Positions 3,480-62,962 of a stretch of DNA of 64,000 nt are shown piece by piece. Source of the DNA: Pseudomonadota bacterium. GTDB lineage: Bacteria > Bdellovibrionota > Bdellovibrionia > Bdellovibrionales > SG-bin7. The DNA is taken from NCBI GenBank assembly GCA_034439715.1, contig JAWXAY010000029.1, forward strand, positions 32,001 to 96,000, given 5' to 3'. Within the stretch, counting starts at the first letter, position 1, and every line of letters starts with the position of its first letter. The notes below the pieces were generated by a model, which worked only from the letters and a program-made list of their open reading frames with translations, made no database searches and was not told the origin of the DNA. The position numbers and the translations under genes are program-made.

Positions 3480-4283
3480 TCACCGGAAAACAAAATCAAC
3501 TAAAACGATATCTGGTTTATATTGGCAATAGTCTTTGGCTTCGCTAGCAGTATCAAATGTCCATATGATTGTCTTTAGCTTGAGGATCTTATTAATCCAC
3601 ACTTGAAACTCATTGGTGGTTCTAAAGTTCGTGCTCCAAAGACTTAGTCCGAGTGCCCAGTTCGCAATAACGCCCTGTGATTCACAGCCGGATTTTATAT
3701 TTAGCTCTCGCTCGATTTGACGAATCAAACGGCACGACAGCCCAATGACGTTGAATTTTTCTTTATCATCTAAAAAACTAAGCTGCTTAAAAAGATCGAA
3801 TGCTGCTTCCCTGGCAACGTTTACCTCTTTGATGTCGACAATAATAACGTCAAAAGATCTGGAATATAAATTCAAAAACTCCTGAAGAGTCAAAATCTGA
3901 GGATGGTGCAGTAAAATTAATTTCGGGTTATTAATTTCTTCAAGTGTGAAATTATCATGCATAAGATATATGTTATTACTGACTATGTTAACGTCAATCT
4001 CGATAGCCCTAACTTTACTTTGAATCGCGGCTTCAATGGCAGTTCGTGATGAGTCTTGGTACATATTGATGTTAGCAAACCCACGATGGGCGGCAACTTG
4101 GCTATTACAACCCACGGGAGACTGACTCGGGTGTAACATAGAACTTACCCAAGAACCCACATGCCTCTCAAATAAAGTAAGAGGAAAAACAAAAGCGTTA
4201 AAATTTAAAACAGCAATGGCGCACAAGAAAATGAGGACCACAATGCTTAGATGAAAAAATCTAATCATTCTTTTTCTGTTCAT
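3480..4283 (-). CDS. glycerophosphodiester phosphodiesterase-like protein, membrane anchored
   Basis: AHRG, IEIDV and MHD catalytic motifs; N-terminal TM helix; overlaps the upstream gene. Confidence 0.75.
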   Translation of the reverse strand: MNRKRMIRFFHLSIVVLIFLCAIAVLNFNAFVFPLTLFERHVGSWVSSMLHPSQSPVGCNSQVAAHRGFANINMYQDSSRTAIEAAIQSKVRAIEIDVNIVSNNIYLMHDNFTLEEINNPKLILLHHPQILTLQEFLNLYSRSFDVIIVDIKEVNVAREAAFDLFKQLSFLDDKEKFNVIGLSCRLIRQIERELNIKSGCESQGVIANWALGLSLWSTNFRTTNEFQVWINKILKLKTIIWTFDTASEAKDYCQYKPDIVLVDFVFR

Positions 4284-6027
4284 TCTTAAGTGCGGTCCAA
4301 TAGAAGTTCGTTAACCACTGTTCAGATTTTTCGCAAGAGGCAAATTCGCACTTATCCGTCATCGGATCGCCCCACTTACGAGAGAATTGGTATTTTCCTT
4401 GATCTACATTATAAAGAACGAGGCCCTCCTTTTTTGAAAGGATCTGCACCAAAAAATCAAATGTTCTATAAAATAAAAATACGGGTTTTTCAGTTTTTAA
4501 ATTATGACCAACCAGGTACTTTCCTGGGGAATTGGTTAATTCTAAAATCGCTCCGCTGAGATCCATATGACTGGTCGGAAAATCCACGACCGTCGGTTCT
4601 CTTGTATCCTTATTCTGGTCGAATACCAATAGCGGGACATGAAAAGTACTTTTAGTGAGCTGGCCAGTTTGACTGGACTTTTGAAACAGCAAGCCATGAT
4701 CACCTGTTACGATTACTACAGTGTTGTTTAGGAGCCCATCAGACTTAAGCCTTTCAAAAAAATTCTTTAATACTAAGTCTTGGTAAGCAAATGCGTTCAG
4801 ATAGGGATTACTATTTTTTTGAATTTCCCTCCCTGACGGAACCCAATAAGGATGGTGAGAATTTATAGGAATTATAATAGAAGCAAATGGTTGGTGGGAC
4901 GGGGCCCAATCGGCGAACGCATTGTAAGTGGCTTCATCGTCTATACCCCAAGAATTTCCCTCATAAATCTTTTCATTTGCCTTCGTCCGGTCCCAAATAA
5001 AATTTACTCCCTGGCTCTTAAAGAACTTTCCCATATTGTCATACTTAAGATCTCCTGAATAAAAAATGGCCGTTGAATAACCATTGGCTGAAACTGGTCC
5101 CAGCCACCCCTGACACTTTCCGTCCGGAAAAATCCGAAACTCTATAACACTACTAAGCATGGGAGGATAGCCGCAGACAGCAGAATACAAGGATTTCGAA
5201 GAAAATGGCCACGGCGTAAAATGTTCTTTATAGAACGTGCTAAATTTAGATTTTGTGAGTTGTGAAAAAAAAGGCATTATTTTTGAAAACTCTTCTTCGT
5301 CCAAACCCAGATTAAAACTGGCTGTTTCCAACATAATTAGTACGACATTTTTTTTTGGAAGGTTACTCGAAACTGGCAAATGCTCCTGGTATTCAAGTAG
5401 AGCGGGCACGTGTTTTAGCTCGAGCTCCACTTGTTCTAATTTTGTAGGATACTCCGAACCAATTCTTTGAAAGGCCTGAAAAAAGGAGTTATAGGTGCTA
5501 ATTTGATATTTCTTATCTGCAGAAACAGCCGCAACTCCGACTCCCAATATCAGCAAACAAAGGGGATAGAAAAGCACTTTCAATTTGTCTTTAATTAAAG
5601 ATAGTCCACCGATCAATGTAAAGTATCCTGCAAACAATCCAAACAGTAACCATAACAACCTGCCACTTGATTGGTCCGAAATAGACGTACGCAAATCTAA
5701 GACATTGCTAACTTGAGAAATAAGATCCAAAGTAAGCGGATTCTCCATTTTAATATAAAATAAAACTGAAATGATATTTAGAAGAACCAACAGCAATGTT
5801 ACAAGTAGCGCCAACCAAGGCTTGAAAACAATATAAAAAAGAATCGATGCTATACCGATGATAAATATGTCTTCGCTCGGAGCGACTAAATAATATTTAA
5901 ATTCTTTAGGAATCAAAAGAATTGCGGCAACCAGGCGAGAGCGTACAACGTATAGAATTGGTAAGGTACTGAGAAAAATAGCCGGCCAATAGACCTGGGC
6001 CCGTAGAAGCCTTTTCTTGAGACTCAT
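4261..6027 (-). CDS. LTA synthase/sulfatase-family membrane phosphotransferase
   Basis: About 5 N-terminal TM helices; NVVLIMLET, SHHPY, TGDHG, VPL and SHMD motifs of the alkaline phosphatase superfamily. Confidence 0.8.
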   Translation of the reverse strand: MSLKKRLLRAQVYWPAIFLSTLPILYVVRSRLVAAILLIPKEFKYYLVAPSEDIFIIGIASILFYIVFKPWLALLVTLLLVLLNIISVLFYIKMENPLTLDLISQVSNVLDLRTSISDQSSGRLLWLLFGLFAGYFTLIGGLSLIKDKLKVLFYPLCLLILGVGVAAVSADKKYQISTYNSFFQAFQRIGSEYPTKLEQVELELKHVPALLEYQEHLPVSSNLPKKNVVLIMLETASFNLGLDEEEFSKIMPFFSQLTKSKFSTFYKEHFTPWPFSSKSLYSAVCGYPPMLSSVIEFRIFPDGKCQGWLGPVSANGYSTAIFYSGDLKYDNMGKFFKSQGVNFIWDRTKANEKIYEGNSWGIDDEATYNAFADWAPSHQPFASIIIPINSHHPYWVPSGREIQKNSNPYLNAFAYQDLVLKNFFERLKSDGLLNNTVVIVTGDHGLLFQKSSQTGQLTKSTFHVPLLVFDQNKDTREPTVVDFPTSHMDLSGAILELTNSPGKYLVGHNLKTEKPVFLFYRTFDFLVQILSKKEGLVLYNVDQGKYQFSRKWGDPMTDKCEFASCEKSEQWLTNFYWTALKNEQKKND

Positions 6028-47344: not shown

Positions 47345-48172
47345 TTACGCTAAAAGTCTTAGCGCCGAAGCTCCTCGTTGATTAGCTTGCGCCAATACCG
47401 CGATAGAAGCCTGTTGCAGAATCGAAGATGAAGCGAGTTCCGCTGATTCATGCGCTATGTCTGCATCACGAAGTCGTGAATTAGCAGCACTTAAGTTTTC
47501 GTATTGAATATCCAAGTTACTGACAGTTACACCCATTCGGCTCGAAACCGCGCCAAAATCTGCACGCATCTTACCTAATTTAATAAGGGCATCGTCCACT
47601 GTTTGTAGGGAATCACGAGCAGACTCCTTATCACTAAGGGATATGTCGTCATAACCGATGGCACCCCCGGTAGCGTCAGCATTAAATTTGTAACTGACGA
47701 CGTTATCTTTATCACCAAAGGGACCGACGTGGAACTCTAGTTCTTCGCCAGAACCATCAAGCAATTTCATATTTCCGAATCGTGTGGTCTTAGCTATGCG
47801 CTCAGACTCTTCAAGTAATTGCATCGACTCTTGGTTGAGAAACTGTCTCTCAACTTCACCGATGTTGTCAGAAGCAGCTTGTACTCCCAACTCTCGGATT
47901 CGAATCATGATGTTATTGATTTCGCTTAATCCGCCGTCACTCACTTCAATTAATGACTGAGCGTTGTAGGCGTTATTACGTGCCATTGCTATACCGCGAA
48001 TCTGACCTTTTAAGTTTTCAGATATCGCTAATCCTGCTGCATCATCTGCAGCTTTAGTAATGCGGCTACCAGAAGAAAGAGCTGCCATGGCATGCTCGTT
48101 TCTTGATTGTTGTTTGTCGAGTTGTCGTTGAGCGTTGATCGACGCAACGTTTGTTGAAATTCTTAGACCCAT
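47345..48172 (-). CDS. fliC: flagellin (275 aa)
   Basis: MGLRISTNVASINAQR, SSGSRITKAADDAAGL, NSRLRDAD; GGGGAG RBS. Confidence 0.97.
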   Translation of the reverse strand: MGLRISTNVASINAQRQLDKQQSRNEHAMAALSSGSRITKAADDAAGLAISENLKGQIRGIAMARNNAYNAQSLIEVSDGGLSEINNIMIRIRELGVQAASDNIGEVERQFLNQESMQLLEESERIAKTTRFGNMKLLDGSGEELEFHVGPFGDKDNVVSYKFNADATGGAIGYDDISLSDKESARDSLQTVDDALIKLGKMRADFGAVSSRMGVTVSNLDIQYENLSAANSRLRDADIAHESAELASSSILQQASIAVLAQANQRGASALRLLA

Positions 48173-48392
48173 ACTGTCTCCCCACAAAAGACTTCATCCA
48201 TGATGAATAGTCTCAGCCCCGACTCTGGTCGAGTTTGAGCGCCATTCTGGCGTTGTTAATAATCAAAACTAACTTTTGTTGGAATTTGGACCGAAGAATT
48301 AATTACGACATTAGTTCTTTAGTCTCTTGGAGGGATCCTTTAAGTGACTGCTGAAAGGGTTCCTTCAAGCGGCTCCAACGTTTACAAAGAAC

Positions 48393-48419
48393 TAATCGAC
48401 GTTAGTCTAGGAAACTTTA
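48393..48419 (-). promoter_or_regulatory. sigma28-type promoter (flagellin 3)
   Basis: TAAAGTTT-N11-GTCGATTA. Confidence 0.85.
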
Positions 48420-48568
48420 GCCTTAGGTCTAGCAATTCTAAAACGCGAAGCGTCTAGTTGCGGAAGTTACTCACGATAAATTTTAAAGTTTTTTTTAGAA
48501 AACGGCTCGAATAAAGCCTAAAGGTGTTTGAAGGGACCGAATAGTCCCCGAAATAATGCGGCGCATTT

Positions 48569-49396
48569 CTACATTATGAGACGTAAAGCTTTCTGTGGAA
48601 GCGAGTTTGCTTGAGCTAAAACCGCCACGCCCATCTCTTGTAATATTTGAGCTTGAGCGAGCTCTGAAGTTTCATGCGCAATATCGGCGTCAATAATTCG
48701 CGAACGCGCCGCTTGGTTGTTCTCCACTTGTTGATCAAGGTTGTTGATTGCAAATTGAAAACGACTTTGCAGAGCACCAAAGCCAGCGCGCACACCCGCT
48801 AGCTTTTGTATTCCATTATCTAAATCTGGTAATATCTCAGAGGCTTCGTCTTTATCTGCGATGCTAAGTCCAGAGAGGTTCATGGCATCTCCAGAAGTAT
48901 CTGCATCTAGCGATAGCCCAATGATGTTACTCTCGTCAGAGTCAGCACCGACGTGGAACTCAAACCTTTGCCCTGATCCCTCAAGCAGTTTTGCGCTGCC
49001 AAATGTTGTGGATTTTGCAATACGATCAGACTCTTCAGTGAGAAGTTGAAACTCCTGATCTAAAAAACCCCGTTCCGCATCAGAAATACCATCACTCGCA
49101 GCTTGCACAGCAAGTTCACGCAACCTAATCATAATATTATTTTGCTCGGAAAGGCCGCCTTCAGCGACCTGGATTAGAGAAGTTCCATGCTCGGCGTTTT
49201 GACGAGCCCTCGTAAGACCCACCACTCGACCCTTAAGATTTTCGGCAATCGCAAAACCCGCAGCATCATCCGAAGCAGTGACAATTCTCTGTCCTGATGC
49301 GAGTGCTTGAATAGCGTGGTTCACACGCTCGTCAGTTTTTCCCAACTTACGTTGGACATAAAGCGACGCAACGTTTGTACCAATACGAATAGGCAT
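48569..49396 (-). CDS. fliC: flagellin (275 aa, most divergent paralogue)
   Basis: ASGQRIVTASDDAAG, RAGFGALQSR, RSRIIDAD, LAQAN. Confidence 0.96.
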   Translation of the reverse strand: MPIRIGTNVASLYVQRKLGKTDERVNHAIQALASGQRIVTASDDAAGFAIAENLKGRVVGLTRARQNAEHGTSLIQVAEGGLSEQNNIMIRLRELAVQAASDGISDAERGFLDQEFQLLTEESDRIAKSTTFGSAKLLEGSGQRFEFHVGADSDESNIIGLSLDADTSGDAMNLSGLSIADKDEASEILPDLDNGIQKLAGVRAGFGALQSRFQFAINNLDQQVENNQAARSRIIDADIAHETSELAQAQILQEMGVAVLAQANSLPQKALRLIM

Positions 49397-49851: not shown

Positions 49852-50397
49852 GTGAAGAAATTTGAGGTTCTCAAAACGATTGAGTTCGAGGAATGGTTGG
49901 CAACTCAACCGCCGAAGACCAAGGTGATTATTAAAGCTCGACTTGATCTAATTGCAATCGGTCACTTTGGTGACCACAAACGTTTTGAGGGGCTTATTGA
50001 GTTAAGATGGTTAAACGGCAATCGTGTCTACTCATTTTTGTGGGGACACTCGATAGTGGTCGCTCTTTATGGAGGTAATAAAATGCGCAAAACAGGGACA
50101 TCAGGAAAGCGAAGAAAATTAGGGACGAAATCCTTGAAGGTACACGAACCCTTCGCAAGTAAAGAATTAAAAAACCCTCACCTTGTTGCGGAAACCCTAC
50201 TTGAATGCATCAAGACTGGGGACGTAGAATCATTTCGTGAGGTTCTTATAGCCCATTTGATGACTGTCAATAAGGTTGAAATTGCAAAGAAGGCTGGTAT
50301 TGGTCGCCGAACACTTTATGATTTGATTGACCCTAAGAAGGAATTTAATCCTGAACTTTCAACTATCTCTGCAGTTATTCGCGCTTTAGCGGCATGA
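49852..50397 (+). CDS. RelE/HigB-like toxin fused in frame to an HTH antitoxin (toxin frameshifted)
   Basis: Toxin motifs FEEWL..ARL..GHFGDHK..ELRW..RVY..LYGGNK. Antitoxin starts at ATG 50083 (RBS GGAGGT) and has HTH IAKKAGIGRRTLY...NPELSTI. Confidence 0.85.
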   Translation: MKKFEVLKTIEFEEWLATQPPKTKVIIKARLDLIAIGHFGDHKRFEGLIELRWLNGNRVYSFLWGHSIVVALYGGNKMRKTGTSGKRRKLGTKSLKVHEPFASKELKNPHLVAETLLECIKTGDVESFREVLIAHLMTVNKVEIAKKAGIGRRTLYDLIDPKKEFNPELSTISAVIRALAA

Positions 50398-54682: not shown

Positions 54683-55399
54683 ATGCCTCAATTTCTACTT
54701 TTCATTTTACTTTTTTTTAGTCAGACTTTATTTGCCGAAATCAAAATCCCCGTAAATCTTTCGCAATTGGACCGTTTGGAGACTTTACGAATCTTGGGCA
54801 TGGGCACGTCGAGCAAAATCCTATCTGAACCCTACCCCTTAGGAGGTTATTCGGGACTCGAGTTAGGTGTTAGCATTGAGTTTTTAGATCTGACCGATCT
54901 TTCTAGCCTAGGAGCCACCATCCCAGACAAGCAAGAAAACACGACTTACCCAAAACTTTCGTTGGGCAAGGGCCTTTATAACAACATAGACATGTTTTTC
55001 AACTTTACTCCTTACAGCAAAAACTCTGGTCTTTCGCAGTACGGAGGAATGATCCGCTGGGGATTTTATCAATCGCCCTACGTGCCCACCTGTCTGTCAC
55101 TTTTAGTTCATGGCAATGCTACCAATGTTTCACAGAATATTTTTTCGCAGTCATTTGGTGTGGACCTCGTCGCCGGCTTTACTTTAAATTATGTGTCTGT
55201 TTATTTTGGGGGTGGACAGATTGAAAGCCGCGGCCAATTTGTGGGAATAAACTCCTCGAACAATATAGAAACAGAGCATACAAGTTCTGTTCATACATTG
55301 ATGGGTACAATACTAACTTTAGACAAAGTATTTGTGGCCATTGAGCTCGATCGTTACTCTGATGCTATGATATCAGCTAAAATTGGAATCCGAAATTGA
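54683..55399 (+). CDS. putative outer-membrane beta-barrel protein
   Basis: Signal peptide; Gly/aromatic beta strands. Confidence 0.6.
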   Translation: MPQFLLFILLFFSQTLFAEIKIPVNLSQLDRLETLRILGMGTSSKILSEPYPLGGYSGLELGVSIEFLDLTDLSSLGATIPDKQENTTYPKLSLGKGLYNNIDMFFNFTPYSKNSGLSQYGGMIRWGFYQSPYVPTCLSLLVHGNATNVSQNIFSQSFGVDLVAGFTLNYVSVYFGGGQIESRGQFVGINSSNNIETEHTSSVHTLMGTILTLDKVFVAIELDRYSDAMISAKIGIRN

Positions 55400-55896
55400 T
55401 CCAATAAACTCAGGCCACTTTTGTAGCGAAGAAATGTAAAAACGGGAGTGTGCAAATCCTCCCCCTTTTTATAGGGGTCAAAATCGATGTTAATTTTTTC
55501 GTTAAAATTCTCCATACTATCTGGAATCTCTATAACCAGTTTGTGCACTCTCGCTTCGTTTATGTCGGTAATGAGAATTTTCACCTGGTACCATACAGCA
55601 GACGTGTAAACCGCTTTTGCAAGTGTAACATCCATGGAATATGGTTTGCCGCCACGCTCTGCATGCTGCGACCAATTTCCGCTATACATATGTGGATCGG
55701 ATCCGCCAATATCTTTGAGTTCGATGGAATAATCCAATGGTACTCGAGGATAAGGAAAATCCTCACACTCGTCAGCTGGGGTATCTGGAGGGCAGACAAA
55801 GATTTGCAAAGAAGACCTAAAGTAATGAGTCTCCAGTGCCTGCGCAAAGTTAGAAAAAAATACCGTTACAAAAATGCCAATTATTAATTTTTTCAT
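55354..55896 (-). CDS. secreted hypothetical protein
   Basis: Signal peptide (AQA); ATGA overlap with the histone gene stop. Confidence 0.65.
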   Translation of the reverse strand: MKKLIIGIFVTVFFSNFAQALETHYFRSSLQIFVCPPDTPADECEDFPYPRVPLDYSIELKDIGGSDPHMYSGNWSQHAERGGKPYSMDVTLAKAVYTSAVWYQVKILITDINEARVHKLVIEIPDSMENFNEKINIDFDPYKKGEDLHTPVFTFLRYKSGLSLLDQFRIPILADIIASE

Positions 55897-56324
55897 TCGA
55901 AATCCCTTTCTAAAACAGTTTTTCTGCCTTCTTCGCGCGCCTTATCGATAGCATCGTTGCAAATCCGGCGGACTTTCTCGGACAAAATATCCATTATTTT
56001 ATCCGACGTATTCATATCAGCTCGTTCCTTAATATAAGATTTTACCTTTGTAACAACTACCAGGGGTTCATGAATGGGACGCATACTCGCAATTTGGCTT
56101 GCGCCCGCTACTACCCGCCGGGGGGCCTTTCGTTCCTCAGCCCACGAATCTTTATGTTTCATAATCGGCACATGGGCATCCCAACAGGCCACACTACAAA
56201 ATACAAAACCCGTGCGCGTTTGATTACAAGTGGTTACGTTACAGACAAAATAAGCTTCACCGAATCCGATGTTTTTTTTACAGGTGTTGCATTTTTTCCA
56301 AAAATTATTTCCATTTTCAATCAA
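55893..56324 (-). CDS. bacterial histone with N-terminal Zn-finger (ZZ-type, Bd3044-like)
   Basis: C12,C15,C28,C33,C43,C47,H51,H57; C-terminal LVVVTKVKSYIK..DMNTS...LSEKV..IC..AI..A...GRKTVLERDF histone fold. Confidence 0.88.
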   Translation of the reverse strand: MIENGNNFWKKCNTCKKNIGFGEAYFVCNVTTCNQTRTGFVFCSVACWDAHVPIMKHKDSWAEERKAPRRVVAGASQIASMRPIHEPLVVVTKVKSYIKERADMNTSDKIMDILSEKVRRICNDAIDKAREEGRKTVLERDFE

Positions 56325-56788
56325 AGTTTTCTCACTTTTTCTATAATGGCGGATGACGACTTGCCTTCGACAAACGGAAGGGACTTAATTAACCCTCCAC
56401 GAGACTTTACGAAGTCAGCCCCTACTATCTTATCGACAGGCCAGTCTCCACCTTTAACTAAGATATCAGGTTCTAGTTTTTTGATCAGGTCTTTGGGTGT
56501 GTCCTCGCCAAAGACCACGACATAGTCCACACTGACAAGCGCCGCTAGAATCTTGGCGCGATCTTCTTCGCATTGAATCGGACGTGTGGGTCCCTTTAAG
56601 GATTTAACACTTTCGTCAGAGTTGATGCCGACGACCAGGATATCGCCCAAGGCCTTTGCTGCATCAAGATAAGTGACATGTCCTGCATGAAGAATATCAA
56701 AACAACCATTGGTAAAAATAACTTTTTTATTTTTTCTCTTTTGAGTTAGGGCTATTTGTAGGTCTTGGAGATTTAATACTTGTCCCAC
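56321..56788 (-). CDS. rfaE2: D-glycero-beta-D-manno-heptose 1-phosphate adenylyltransferase
   Basis: FTNGCFDILHAGH, GINSDESV..LKG..RP, KGGDW. Confidence 0.93.
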   Translation of the reverse strand: MGQVLNLQDLQIALTQKRKNKKVIFTNGCFDILHAGHVTYLDAAKALGDILVVGINSDESVKSLKGPTRPIQCEEDRAKILAALVSVDYVVVFGEDTPKDLIKKLEPDILVKGGDWPVDKIVGADFVKSRGGLIKSLPFVEGKSSSAIIEKVRKL

Positions 56789-56793
56789 GATAA

Positions 56794-57483
56794 TTAATTA
56801 TTTCGATAGAGCCTAAGGCCTGAAACTCTAGACGCTAGATCGTTGCCTAGGAGCAATGATAAAAAGGGCAAAAGAATAACTCCAGTAAAAGTCACAAATA
56901 GAGATCGGGCCAAGACCTTTAAGGGATAGCGGTCGTCCTGCTGATCACTCGGCGTTCCCAATTGAATATCAAATGCCCATTCACCAAGAGTTTGGCCGCA
57001 AAAGGTTCTGGCGATCACAATATAAAGTTGCGAGATGGCTACATATAGCACCACCAGACTCACTTGATTGGTTAAATATATACTGGTCGCACGCACGATG
57101 CTCAAAATGTCGATGCGGGTTACAAAAACGAGCGCAATTAAAAAAATCAAAGAGATGGCAAAAGAAAAAATGGCATCAAACATCATTGCCGGAAAACTAG
57201 CGGCCACAACCGGGTAAGTAATCTTAGGTTTGGGCTTTTCTAAAATTACCGAATTAAGCTGGCTCTTAAATTGGCTGCGAATAGCGTCAGACACAGTTTT
57301 TTCAGGGGTGATGCCCATAAGTTCTTTTTCAATAAGGCTTTTTGGAACTGTGGGCATATCATAACCCATTTGGGTTTTTGCAATTCGACTTTCTTCAATT
57401 TCTTTTTTTATATTTTGAGCTCTTTTGTTGAAACCTAATCCCTCAGTCAGCGGCTTGAACTCAAACTCATCTATAAAATCCAT
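56794..57483 (-). CDS. RDD family membrane protein
   Basis: TM helices; GQTLGEWAFDI; ARSL; DLASRVSG. Confidence 0.7.
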   Translation of the reverse strand: MDFIDEFEFKPLTEGLGFNKRAQNIKKEIEESRIAKTQMGYDMPTVPKSLIEKELMGITPEKTVSDAIRSQFKSQLNSVILEKPKPKITYPVVAASFPAMMFDAIFSFAISLIFLIALVFVTRIDILSIVRATSIYLTNQVSLVVLYVAISQLYIVIARTFCGQTLGEWAFDIQLGTPSDQQDDRYPLKVLARSLFVTFTGVILLPFLSLLLGNDLASRVSGLRLYRNN

Positions 57484-57491
57484 TTTGGCTC

Positions 57492-58244
57492 CTACTGCAT
57501 AAGATTACATTCGTACTTTATGATGCTAACTAAAGCTAAGCAAGCCGTTTCCACCCGCAGAACTTGTTCTCCGAGAGTTATCGGTTCTAAACCGCTAGCT
57601 TTAAAAACTTCCACTTCTTGTTTTGAAAATCCGCCTTCACTGCCTACAAAAAGCCACACATTTTTGAGGGCTTTGTTGTTACTTGAGGTCAAAACCTGTT
57701 TGACATTGCGCTCGCAATGCCCCTCAAAAGCAAATAGACCCATGGCAGCATCAGATTGGTTAAATCCTTTGATAATTTCTTCAAGTTTTATGGGTTCTGG
57801 AGTCGCCATCAGTTCAGAGCGCCCACATTGCTGCGTGGCCATTTTAACTATTTTTTCCCAACGTTTTTGTTTTCCGTTGAGCGCGTCATTCGGCTTTCGA
57901 AAGTAACTGTGTTCAGAGAAAAATGGCAACAAAGTAGAAACGCCGAGTTCCACCGATTTTTCCAAAATAGTTTCAAATGTCTGTAATTTTGGCAAAGATA
58001 TGGCTAAACTAATATGGGGAAGCGCTAGCGAGGAGATTTCTCGCTTGCTTAATACAGTGGCTTTTGCTTCTCTTTTTTTTAGTTCAACGATCTCAACCAA
58101 CAAGGCAACGTCGCCTTGGCCCAAAATTTCAAATCGATCTTTCATGCCTTGGCGACATACTCCACAAATATGATGAAAGCTCTCACCCTGGATTACTACG
58201 AAATCTTCTTTGATATCTTGGGGCTCAAGCCAATAGCGACGCAT
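57492..58244 (-). CDS. rsmE: 16S rRNA m3U1498 methyltransferase
   Basis: HHICGVCR, EKSVELGV, QQCGR, VGSEGGFS, LGEQVLRVETA. Confidence 0.95.
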   Translation of the reverse strand: MRRYWLEPQDIKEDFVVIQGESFHHICGVCRQGMKDRFEILGQGDVALLVEIVELKKREAKATVLSKREISSLALPHISLAISLPKLQTFETILEKSVELGVSTLLPFFSEHSYFRKPNDALNGKQKRWEKIVKMATQQCGRSELMATPEPIKLEEIIKGFNQSDAAMGLFAFEGHCERNVKQVLTSSNNKALKNVWLFVGSEGGFSKQEVEVFKASGLEPITLGEQVLRVETACLALVSIIKYECNLMQ

Positions 58245-59112
58245 AAAAACTAACCCAATCCCCTTTGGTTCTTGTTGCGATAAGCTTTAGACCGGTGTGG
58301 GCAAAAAAATTTTCACAAAACTCTTTTTCTTCTTCTTTCAGAACGCCGGTAAGGATGATTCCTCCGCCCGGCTCAATGGCCCTAATTAGGCTCGGTTTCA
58401 AATCTAAGAGTACTCCACTCACTATGTTCGCGACCACTAAATCAAATTTCTCACTAATTTTTTCGATGGGTCTAGCTGAAAATACAATATTTTCAAAATA
58501 ATTAAGGGCGATGTTTTCGCGCGAAACTCTTAGGCACTCAGGATCAATATCAATTCCCAATACCTTTTCCGCTCCGAGCGAGCTAGCAAGCATGGCCAAA
58601 ACCCCAGTGCCAGTGCCCACATCTAGAACCGATTTAGGATGTTTTTGCGAACGGTATACACATAGTATGAGTTCGGCTGCCATTTGTGTCGTTTCGTGAG
58701 TCCCTGTGCCAAAAGCCATTCCCGGATCTATGCGAAAAAAGCGTCGGGCCACCTTCGGCGCCTCATGCCAACTCGGCACGATCCAGTAAGGATCAGCGAA
58801 TAAAAACGGTTTAAAATTTTCTTTCCAGTTGGCTAACCAATCTTGGGTTTCGAGTTCAGAAATTGAGGCTTGCACATGCGGAAAGCCTTGTTGCAATTTT
58901 AAGAAAAAGTCTTCGTTAGGACGGGAACTAAAATAGACCACCATCTGCTTTGAATGATCTTCGAGAATGGTCGGCCGATATTTTAGTGACTTTTGCTCAA
59001 AGGGGACATCCTCTGACGTTCCTAAGCATCCCATTGCAAAGCAAAAGGCCGATAGCAAGTCCTTTTCACGACTGTAAACGGGATTTAAATTTATTTCACA
59101 ATAGGTCTTCAC
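58225..59112 (-). CDS. prmA: ribosomal protein L11 methyltransferase
   Basis: DWLANWK..F, DPGMAFGTGTHETT, LDVGTGTG, ANI. Confidence 0.95.
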   Translation of the reverse strand: MKTYCEINLNPVYSREKDLLSAFCFAMGCLGTSEDVPFEQKSLKYRPTILEDHSKQMVVYFSSRPNEDFFLKLQQGFPHVQASISELETQDWLANWKENFKPFLFADPYWIVPSWHEAPKVARRFFRIDPGMAFGTGTHETTQMAAELILCVYRSQKHPKSVLDVGTGTGVLAMLASSLGAEKVLGIDIDPECLRVSRENIALNYFENIVFSARPIEKISEKFDLVVANIVSGVLLDLKPSLIRAIEPGGGIILTGVLKEEEKEFCENFFAHTGLKLIATRTKGDWVSFYASLLA

Positions 59113-59666
59113 TACAGACTGGGTTTACCAACTGTGGTAGCGACTGGCAAGCCAGAAGGTTTAGCTTCTTCTCTTAATTCAGCCTTGAGTTCAATCTTTT
59201 GATCGACCTTAGGGTCTTCTTGTGGCTCTTCACGCTTGGCTTTTTTACCGGGAACGAGTGCCGATCCCATATCGAGGAAATCTCCAACCATGATGCCCTC
59301 AAACTCCAGAATAGGTAGCCCCACTCGGTCAATGGAACTATAGAGGCGTCCCACGCTAAACTCATTCTCGACATGAATGATTTGAATTCGGGCAACGGGA
59401 TTGGTCAGTAATCCTTGCGATTTATTTTTTAAGGTGTCGTGAACCGGGAGGTTTCTGACCACAGTAATGACCATCCCCTTTTGTAGACCCTGTTGAGATC
59501 CACCGGTGACATAGTAATCTTTATAGACAATATCTTCAGACGTTAACGGAATGTTTTTTTGCACTTCAAATACTGAAACTTCGCTAGCGCCAGCGGATGT
59601 CCCCGCAGGTAATTGCAGAACAATCACGAGGCTCAGTGAAAAAAATCCTTTTAAATATAACGACAT
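59112..59666 (-). CDS. exported protein with FlgT C-terminal-like beta domain
   Basis: YYVTGGSQQGLQKGMVITVVR...VARIQIIHV..EFSVGR; ATG 59666 after GAGGGG. Confidence 0.6.
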   Translation of the reverse strand: MSLYLKGFFSLSLVIVLQLPAGTSAGASEVSVFEVQKNIPLTSEDIVYKDYYVTGGSQQGLQKGMVITVVRNLPVHDTLKNKSQGLLTNPVARIQIIHVENEFSVGRLYSSIDRVGLPILEFEGIMVGDFLDMGSALVPGKKAKREEPQEDPKVDQKIELKAELREEAKPSGLPVATTVGKPSL

Positions 59667-59733
59667 GACAGACCCCCTCTTTCCTTGGTCTATCACCTTC
59701 CTGGTAATTTCTTGTCCAATCCTTGGTAACAAT

Positions 59734-61868: not shown

Positions 61869-62360
61869 ATGAGATATTTATTAGTTTTATGCTTTTTAGT
61901 CGCTGGAGTTTTCGGTCAAGCCGAAGACATTGCCATAAGCTTGGATTCATTGAGGCCTGCCGAAGAGATCGATTTAGAGCTTGAAGCAATTGATGAAGAA
62001 AATTTAGAAGAAAACTCAGAAGAGGATTCAGAAGTAGGTTTATCGATAAGCACCTTTGATCGACGACGTCCACCGCCACCACCACGTCGGTATCCACGGC
62101 CTACTCCGTATCCACGACCTATCCCATATCCGCGGCCTACGCCTTATCCACGGCCTATGCCCTATCCGCAACCTGCACCTTACCCACGTCCCGTGCCTTA
62201 TCCGCGACCCAGCGCCACTGTTGTTTGTCATGCGACCGACGATTACGGGCGAATCTACACGGCAACGGCATATTATGCGAGCGATGCTCAAAGGTATGCA
62301 ATGAATGAGTGCCTAAGCCACTCTTACTATTGTTATGAGAGAGGCTGTAACTACTACTAA
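61869..62360 (+). CDS. secreted protein: acidic segment, Pro/Arg/Tyr repeats and Cys-rich C-terminus
   Basis: Signal peptide; GAGGGGG RBS; own terminator. Confidence 0.8.
   Translation: MRYLLVLCFLVAGVFGQAEDIAISLDSLRPAEEIDLELEAIDEENLEENSEEDSEVGLSISTFDRRRPPPPPRRYPRPTPYPRPIPYPRPTPYPRPMPYPQPAPYPRPVPYPRPSATVVCHATDDYGRIYTATAYYASDAQRYAMNECLSHSYYCYERGCNYY
62091..62210 (+). repeat. 18-bp coding tandem repeat, YP(R/Q)PxP x about 7
   Basis: Synonymously diverged units, e.g. TATCCACGGCCTACTCCG / TATCCACGACCTATCCCA. Confidence 0.9.
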
Positions 62361-62440: not shown

Positions 62441-62962
62441 CTATAAGCTTGCAACAGGTAATCGTACTGCGACACCTGTGTCCATGGCTTTACTTTTAAT
62501 TGCCTGAGGCGGCGTTTGAACCACTCGTTGTTGAAGCGCCGCAAATATTGGTTCACGAATCGCCAAACTATTATCTTGTAAAACACACTGGCGGCCGAAT
62601 CGCTTTTTACTATTAATAATGACAGGTGCTTTAAGATTGGCGGTCATTTGTCTGGGATCATTGGGAATAGTGATTATACAAAACGTGTGAAATTTTTCGC
62701 CAGCAACCATTTGTAATGCATCATAGTCTCGACGATTAAACTGTATATTATATTTAGCAGCTAAAAATAGTTCGGGTTCTAAAACAGGAAATGCAATTGC
62801 AGGTGATTCACAACTCTGTAGCCAAGCAAAAATCTCATCGGTGGGATCGTCTAATAAAACAAATTTGCGTAAAGAGGCAAAACCAAGAATTCCTTCAGAA
62901 AACTCAATTATGTCTTCTGAATTAAGCTCTACTGTTCCAAACCGTGAAGTTTGAATCTGCAT
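62441..62962 (-). CDS. fliW: flagellar assembly factor, CsrA antagonist
   Basis: TSRFG, GILGF, WLQS, TANLKAPVIIN. Confidence 0.95.
   Translation of the reverse strand: MQIQTSRFGTVELNSEDIIEFSEGILGFASLRKFVLLDDPTDEIFAWLQSCESPAIAFPVLEPELFLAAKYNIQFNRRDYDALQMVAGEKFHTFCIITIPNDPRQMTANLKAPVIINSKKRFGRQCVLQDNSLAIREPIFAALQQRVVQTPPQAIKSKAMDTGVAVRLPVASL

Follow-up and report, generated by a model that had tools for sequence, protein, structure and literature searches.

A ZZ histone gene appended to a prmA-rsmE-RDD-rfaE2 operon in Bdellovibrionota, a candidate tether of a two-zinc module to the nucleoid

Here, we analysed a 64,000-nt stretch of contig JAWXAY010000029.1 (assembly GCA_034439715.1; Bdellovibrionota), hereafter the window, to which all positions refer unless another locus is named, focusing on a gene for a zinc-finger protein with a C-terminal histone fold. 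This gene is a member of the ZZ histone family (alpha3 subfamily) of predatory bacteria, which was named in 2024 and has about 500 catalogued entries, with 528 mentions in the published data file (Schwab et al. 2024, PMC11390915). On balance, we favour the view that its product is a minor dimeric histone which tethers to the nucleoid a basic two-zinc module together with a short linear motif. The C-terminal fold would dimerise like that of HBb and bind or bend DNA without sequence specificity, and the DNA-bound dimer would hold the ZZ module and the basic-hydrophobic linker motif at the nucleoid, where the module would most likely contact nucleic acid or an acidic partner, acting as an adaptor or affinity booster. 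Taken singly, the gene is ordinary, a further member of a family described computationally; the papers that we found include no bench study of any ZZ histone. The gene and the parts of its product are:

55893..56324, minus strand: ZZ histone gene, 143 amino acids (aa), TTG start
56121..56300, minus strand: predicted ZZ-type two-zinc domain, residues 9-68, basic and without the acidic N-terminus-binding cage; predicted zinc sites C12/C15/C43/C47 and C28/C33/H51/H57
56109..56120, minus strand: RRVV, a short basic-hydrophobic motif, residues 69-72, at the start of a low-confidence linker
55893..56069, minus strand: residues 86-143, histone fold of the alpha3 bacterial-dimer type, carrying the RKTxxxRD clamp and the entire predicted dimer interface

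A dimeric histone fold with conserved DNA-contact residues

Our homologue search recovered 73 proteins among 80 candidates, and the 62 that were near full length were aligned. Residues 86-142 of the window protein match HBb/Bd0055 (PDB 8cmp/8fvx) with an E-value of 2e-11 and 45% identity, and R134, T136, R140 and D141, including the R134/D141 pair of the RD clamp, show no variation across all 62 homologues. The Pfam CBFD_NFYB_HMF (E 0.004) and NCBIfam histone (E 4e-5) models match below their cut-offs. In the AlphaFold model (mean predicted local distance difference test, pLDDT, 83), the histone helices span residues 91-102, 110-131 and 139-142, and the top Foldseek matches are HBb structures (PDB 8cmp, 8fvx, 9ezz), with root-mean-square deviations of 0.8-1.1 A over 58 columns. 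Modelled as two copies together with zinc, the protein obtained a homodimer score of 0.73, whereas the best of 3 controls scored 0.00; contacts agreed to at least 77%, partner pLDDT was no lower than 74, and the interface lay entirely within residues 86-142. Of the solved pairs, 20 of 30 attain the mark used for calling a homodimer, as does 1 of 23 monomers. The initial annotation had proposed a histone fold at residues 86-143 with R..T and RxxxxxD clamp motifs, and a structural check of its dimer; sequence and Foldseek comparison with HBb confirm the fold, and the predicted histone-fold dimer was obtained.

Eight of the ten HBb residues with the most DNA contacts, as listed in a section of Hu et al. 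2024 (PMC11317129), are identical in the window protein (K93, K95, K99, N105, S107, K135, T136 and R140); in the sequence alignment, the other two are a conservative replacement of S9 by T92 and a change of T8 to V91. Conversely, two points weigh against a DNA-bound tether. The net charge of the histone domain is 0, which counts against strong DNA binding, and the homodimer, although supported, probably owes its pass to the likeness to HBb. Given the conserved contact residues, non-specific DNA binding or bending by the histone half is probable, so that, of the chromatin or nucleic-acid-binding role put forward in the initial annotation, the histone fold and the modelled dimer stand and the binding is retained only as probable. 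The Arg/Asn pair of face-to-face (FtF) dimer-dimer contacts appears to be absent, with K128/E132 at the positions that would correspond to R/N in the FtF-type protein of the same genome.

A basic two-zinc domain without the acidic cage

The ligands C12, C15, C28, C33, C43, C47, H51 and H57 are invariant in all 66 rows of the ZZ-domain alignment, as is K16. As in the described ZZ histone D0LYE7, they would form N-terminal C4 and C2H2 sites, 7 of the 8 ligand positions matching at a constant offset of 8; the fourth C4 ligand of D0LYE7 as published lies two residues before the invariant C47 (66/66 here), perhaps through a numbering slip. The window protein further shares with the ZZ histones the bacterial-dimer-like C-terminal histone and the lack of the eukaryotic pocket. 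The net charge of the ZZ domain is +2 to +8 at 80 of 80 loci; the histone and linker columns of this charge table were left unused, because the histone pattern matched 4 rows only.

In its predicted fold, the domain may resemble the ZZ domains of ZZZ3 and BIG. Such a likeness raises the question whether it reads the N-terminus of another histone, for example the lysine-rich tail of the FtF-type histone encoded in the same genome, much as eukaryotic ZZ domains read H3. However, the eukaryotic domains (ZZZ3 and BIG, and HERC2 and p300 as given by Schwab et al. 2024) show no sequence match to the window domain, which is net basic and lacks their acidic cage. In ZZZ3, as described in the part of PMC6138639 that concerns this pocket, D824 and D848 form the cage for the N-terminal amine; the corresponding positions, mapped by inference from the cysteine pattern, are N13 and V41 in the window protein, and neither is acidic in any of the 66 rows. 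That the eukaryotic pocket is not conserved in ZZ histones was likewise reported by Schwab et al. (2024, PMC11390915). Tail reading is thus very improbable. Of the earlier proposal, the eight Cys/His ligands at residues 12-57 are borne out and the two-zinc N-terminal domain stands as a prediction from these ligands, whereas the possible reader role, in the eukaryotic sense, falls with the missing cage.

Other comparisons of the domain gave little. The ZZ profile matched nothing among PDB sequences below E 0.13, a viral fold library gave no match at E <= 0.001, the single-sequence fold had a pLDDT of 53 and was unusable, and the ESM Atlas returned clusters of 69-78 aa without names at 0.87-0.88, which are a lead only. 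Behind the domain, the linker of the window copy is among the shortest of ZZ histones, with pLDDT below 50 at residues 74-80. An RR-hydrophobic motif such as the one at its start occurs in 72 of 135 fused linkers, compared with a mean of 2.6 and a maximum of 7 in shuffled ones.

A minor histone among three classes

The genome encodes three histone classes, namely, the ZZ histone, an HBb-type histone of 74 aa (L002 1645-1869, plus strand) and an FtF-type histone of 71 aa with a lysine-rich N-terminus (L003 1492-1707, minus strand). Given the separate HBb-type and FtF-type proteins, bulk packaging appears to be covered. HBb itself is a single-domain protein without a ZZ domain, abundant and probably essential, whereas the window protein carries a 68-residue ZZ domain and a linker in front of the histone. 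A bulk chromatin protein could nonetheless be envisaged in which the ZZ domain bridges DNA duplexes: being carried on flexible linkers, the two basic domains of a dimer could extend to a second duplex, and in 12 of 74 genomes the ZZ histone is the sole profile match. Against this, the ZZ histone of Bdellovibrio bacteriovorus was reported to be of low abundance (Schwab et al. 2024, PMC11390915), and the window gene combines a weak TTG start with a 3-base ribosome-site match, compared with 5 bases for the separate HBb-type gene. We therefore regard bulk bridging as quite unlikely and the window protein as presumably scarce.

One histone class described earlier from Bdellovibrio probably corresponds to the ZZ histones. 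Hocher et al. 2023 (PMC10627809) reported Bd3044 in 37% of Bdellovibrionota and described it as a singlet histone that is longer and extended at its N-terminus. In our collection, full-length ZZ-histone matches occur in 74 of 201 genomes of the phylum (37%), and B. bacteriovorus Bd5 has a full-length homologue (L182) that is 44% identical to the window protein, with different gene neighbours. From these correspondences, we infer that ZZ histones are the Bd3044 class. According to the relevant portion of a preprint (10.1101/2025.09.24.678257), transcripts of bd3044 and bd0055 are highest late in growth; Bd3044 is not mentioned in the main text of PMC11317129.

The ZZ module across the phylum

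The ZZ domain is not confined to the fusion. A ZZ-only profile has matches in 102 of 201 genomes of the phylum, once per genome in 100 of these, and about 28 genomes have the ZZ domain without a full-length fusion. Among 20 such loci that were fetched, 19 lack an adjacent histone. The remaining one, L104, was considered as a split gene and turned out to be a frame-broken full-length ZZ-histone copy (4034-4484), through either an assembly error or pseudogenisation. No histone match accompanies 82 of the 150 listed representative matches, many of which appear to be fragments or mis-predicted open reading frames (ORFs); they were not counted as standalone.

The standalone proteins fall into recognisable types. 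All ten of L093-L102 (ORFs of 104-142 aa) bear a hydrophobic-basic C-terminal tail, and a tail of this type follows the histone in the full-length ZZ histones P0082, P0097 and P0137, which suggests, from sequence comparison, that the tailed standalone proteins lost the histone by in-frame deletion. In family f11, minimal ZZ-only genes (L103, L105-L112; ORFs of 65-101 aa) form one supported clade in the ZZ tree, and 8 of the 9 lie directly upstream of H+-pyrophosphatase, exbB and exbD genes. The opposite arrangement, a ZZ domain with two tandem histone folds and hence one ZZ per pseudo-dimer, was recognised by eye in 7 of the 56 full-histone matches among the 150 listed (P0092, P0093, P0118, P0163, P0175, P0194 and P0217).

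In yet other lineages, the fused gene retains a second start. In family f19, an in-frame ATG is retained 10 codons ahead of the histone core in all four fused genes of one genus (L043, L044, L234 and L235). The purine-rich ribosome site in front of it resembles that of the short histone gene which alone, without the ZZ domain, occupies this locus in five relatives (L229-L233). In family f23, AGGAG and an ATG stand at the corresponding position in three of three genes (L041, L059 and L091). One gene of the f19/f23 type may therefore produce both a long and a short histone. A short product of the window gene was considered in the same light and rejected: the candidate internal start, M81, has no ribosome-site match, and the 3 relatives do not share its position.

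This modularity could be taken to mean that the ZZ module functions away from chromatin, for instance with RNA or the ribosome as its target or in zinc or redox sensing, with the histone fold as a mere dimerisation or stability tag. The nearly always single-copy ZZ domain, its standalone occurrence at the checked loci and the neutral charge of the histone half all fit such a role. However, the DNA-contact residues are conserved in the fusions and would be needless for a tag, and we consider a function off chromatin unlikely. A tentative extension of the nucleoid-tether reading, possible but short of even chances, is that the ZZ module itself is the conserved unit, a single-copy nucleoid adaptor that is fused to one histone or to a tandem pseudo-dimer or occurs free; in some lineages, an internal start would yield both ZZ and plain histones, whose mixed dimers would be the bacterial equivalent of a histone variant, marking a subset of chromatin with a handle that recruits partners. 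If the adaptor or the mixed-dimer reading is true, bacteria would have a variant-type histone system. Natural test constructs are provided by the free ZZ proteins, the fusions of ZZ to a double histone and the genes with two starts. We found no account of a single-copy ZZ module, histone-less ZZ loci or a kept internal start in the literature, mainly non-subscription texts, and no paper on standalone or bacterial ZZ domains in a search that mostly stopped short of subscription journals.

A family-specific position at the end of an operon

The window gene closes a conserved block of minus-strand genes, with the following neighbours:

59112..59732, minus strand: first gene of the block, encoding a hypothetical protein of 206 aa without a Pfam match; conserved both within the family and at L183
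58225..59112, minus strand: prmA, ribosomal protein L11 methyltransferase (PF06325, E 4e-61; TIGR00406, 179.8 bits, just under the cut-off of 183)
57492..58244, minus strand: rsmE, 16S rRNA m3U1498 methyltransferase (PF04452; TIGR00046 above cut-off)
56794..57483, minus strand: RDD-family membrane protein (PF06271, E 1.7e-5; matched in 59 of 61 genomes of the order)
56321..56788, minus strand: rfaE2, heptose-1-phosphate adenylyltransferase, rfaE domain II (TIGR02199, 214 bits, cut-off 181.5)
55354..55896, minus strand: 180-aa ORF whose start resembles a signal peptide and which overlaps the stop of the histone gene
54683..55399, plus strand: convergent hypothetical gene, 238 aa, of a kind that, in many other families, follows rfaE2 directly and ends the operon

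The TTG start of the ZZ histone gene overlaps the TGA stop of rfaE2 (TTGA) and its TGA stop overlaps the following ATG (ATGA), by 4 nt each. The order prmA-rsmE-RDD-rfaE2-ZZ histone is found in four of four genomes of the window's family, in each of which the histone start overlaps or abuts the rfaE2 stop; the downstream 180-aa ORF is missing from the other three. A scan for promoters and terminators gave site numbers not above those of shuffled sequences. The initial annotation was accurate on the 143-aa ORF, for which it named no strand, on both overlaps and on the four neighbour labels, which the Pfam and TIGR matches uphold; its placement of the gene inside the operon holds for the coupling to rfaE2, the gene itself being the last of the conserved block.

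The coupling invites the idea, raised earlier as a functional link, that PrmA methylates the histone, or that the histone reads methyl marks, and that it is co-selected with prmA and rsmE. Prokaryotic N-terminal methyltransferases are called promiscuous in the pertinent section of a review (PMC10293735), and in L183 the ZZ histone gene lies 1.8 kb from rfaE2. However, in the same section, L11 is the described PrmA substrate, and the N-terminal preferences given there are not matched by the window protein, and in L183 a convergent gene stands between rfaE2 and the histone gene. A survey of synteny in both directions speaks against the link. Of the other full-length matches, which number 73, 60 were inspected across flanks of about 6 kb in both directions, no upstream flank being shorter than 2.5 kb: outside the family, prmA or RDD genes occur near the ZZ histone at 0 of 60 loci, one rsmE and one rfaE2 match lie about 4 kb downstream, and the neighbours vary by lineage. 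In the reverse test, among the best 26 other-family operon loci, rsmE is present in 25 and prmA, given the short flank, in 20; with L129 left out for its 59-bp flank, 25 loci are informative for about 1 kb past rfaE2. None of the 25 has a ZZ histone after rfaE2; at 10 of them, the end of a convergent gene lies no more than 125 bp from rfaE2. Nine genomes with both ZZ histone and operon have them on separate contigs or about 250 kb apart, and among the 80 named loci, partly from the same genomes, the coupled order recurs only in the closest relative (L149, 69%).

Because the family genomes are kin and not independent, their shared synteny counts as one event, and because the linkage is confined to the window's family, as seen from both sides, a single move of the gene to the end of an older operon is indicated. 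Thus, linkage to prmA and rsmE is not conserved outside the family, and these two genes form a translation-modification pair whose homologues also adjoin in Bacillus subtilis, within its dnaK operon, as noted in part of PMC2952846. That two methyltransferase genes stand beside the ZZ histone gene appears to be a local accident and no sign of a shared function, co-selection with PrmA is highly improbable, and PrmA as a bacterial histone methyltransferase is a tempting false lead that the survey removes. Under the tether reading, the gene would have landed, in the family ancestor, at the 3' end of the prmA-rsmE-RDD-rfaE2 operon, to be read by translational coupling, the neighbours supplying expression and not function; this family-specific operon position sets the window copy apart from the described ZZ histones.

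Horizontal gain of the family copy was also considered. Free trees separate it from other copies of the same order, but common descent was not rejected by the approximately unbiased (AU) test (p 0.605), in which the constrained tree had the higher score, and the guanine-plus-cytosine content of the gene is 0.426 against 0.423 for the genome; given the test and the matching composition, horizontal acquisition is unsupported.

Other features of the window

The 180-aa ORF at 55354-55896 (minus strand) overlaps the convergent gene by 46 bp, lacks a paralogue in the genome and has no convincing Atlas match. The RDD protein (56794-57483, minus strand) bears a short conserved N-terminal motif, matched separately in many genomes of the order, before a spacer of variable length. 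Elsewhere, 47345-49396 (minus strand) holds two tandem genes that, by appearance, we take to be flagellin-like, and a fliW gene (PF02623) lies at 62441-62962 (minus strand). A 181-aa ORF at 49852-50397 (plus strand) seems, by appearance only, to join a RelE/HigB-type toxin part and a helix-turn-helix antitoxin part in one frame, and 61869-62360 (plus strand) encodes a secreted-looking protein with a tandem proline-rich repeat and no Pfam match.
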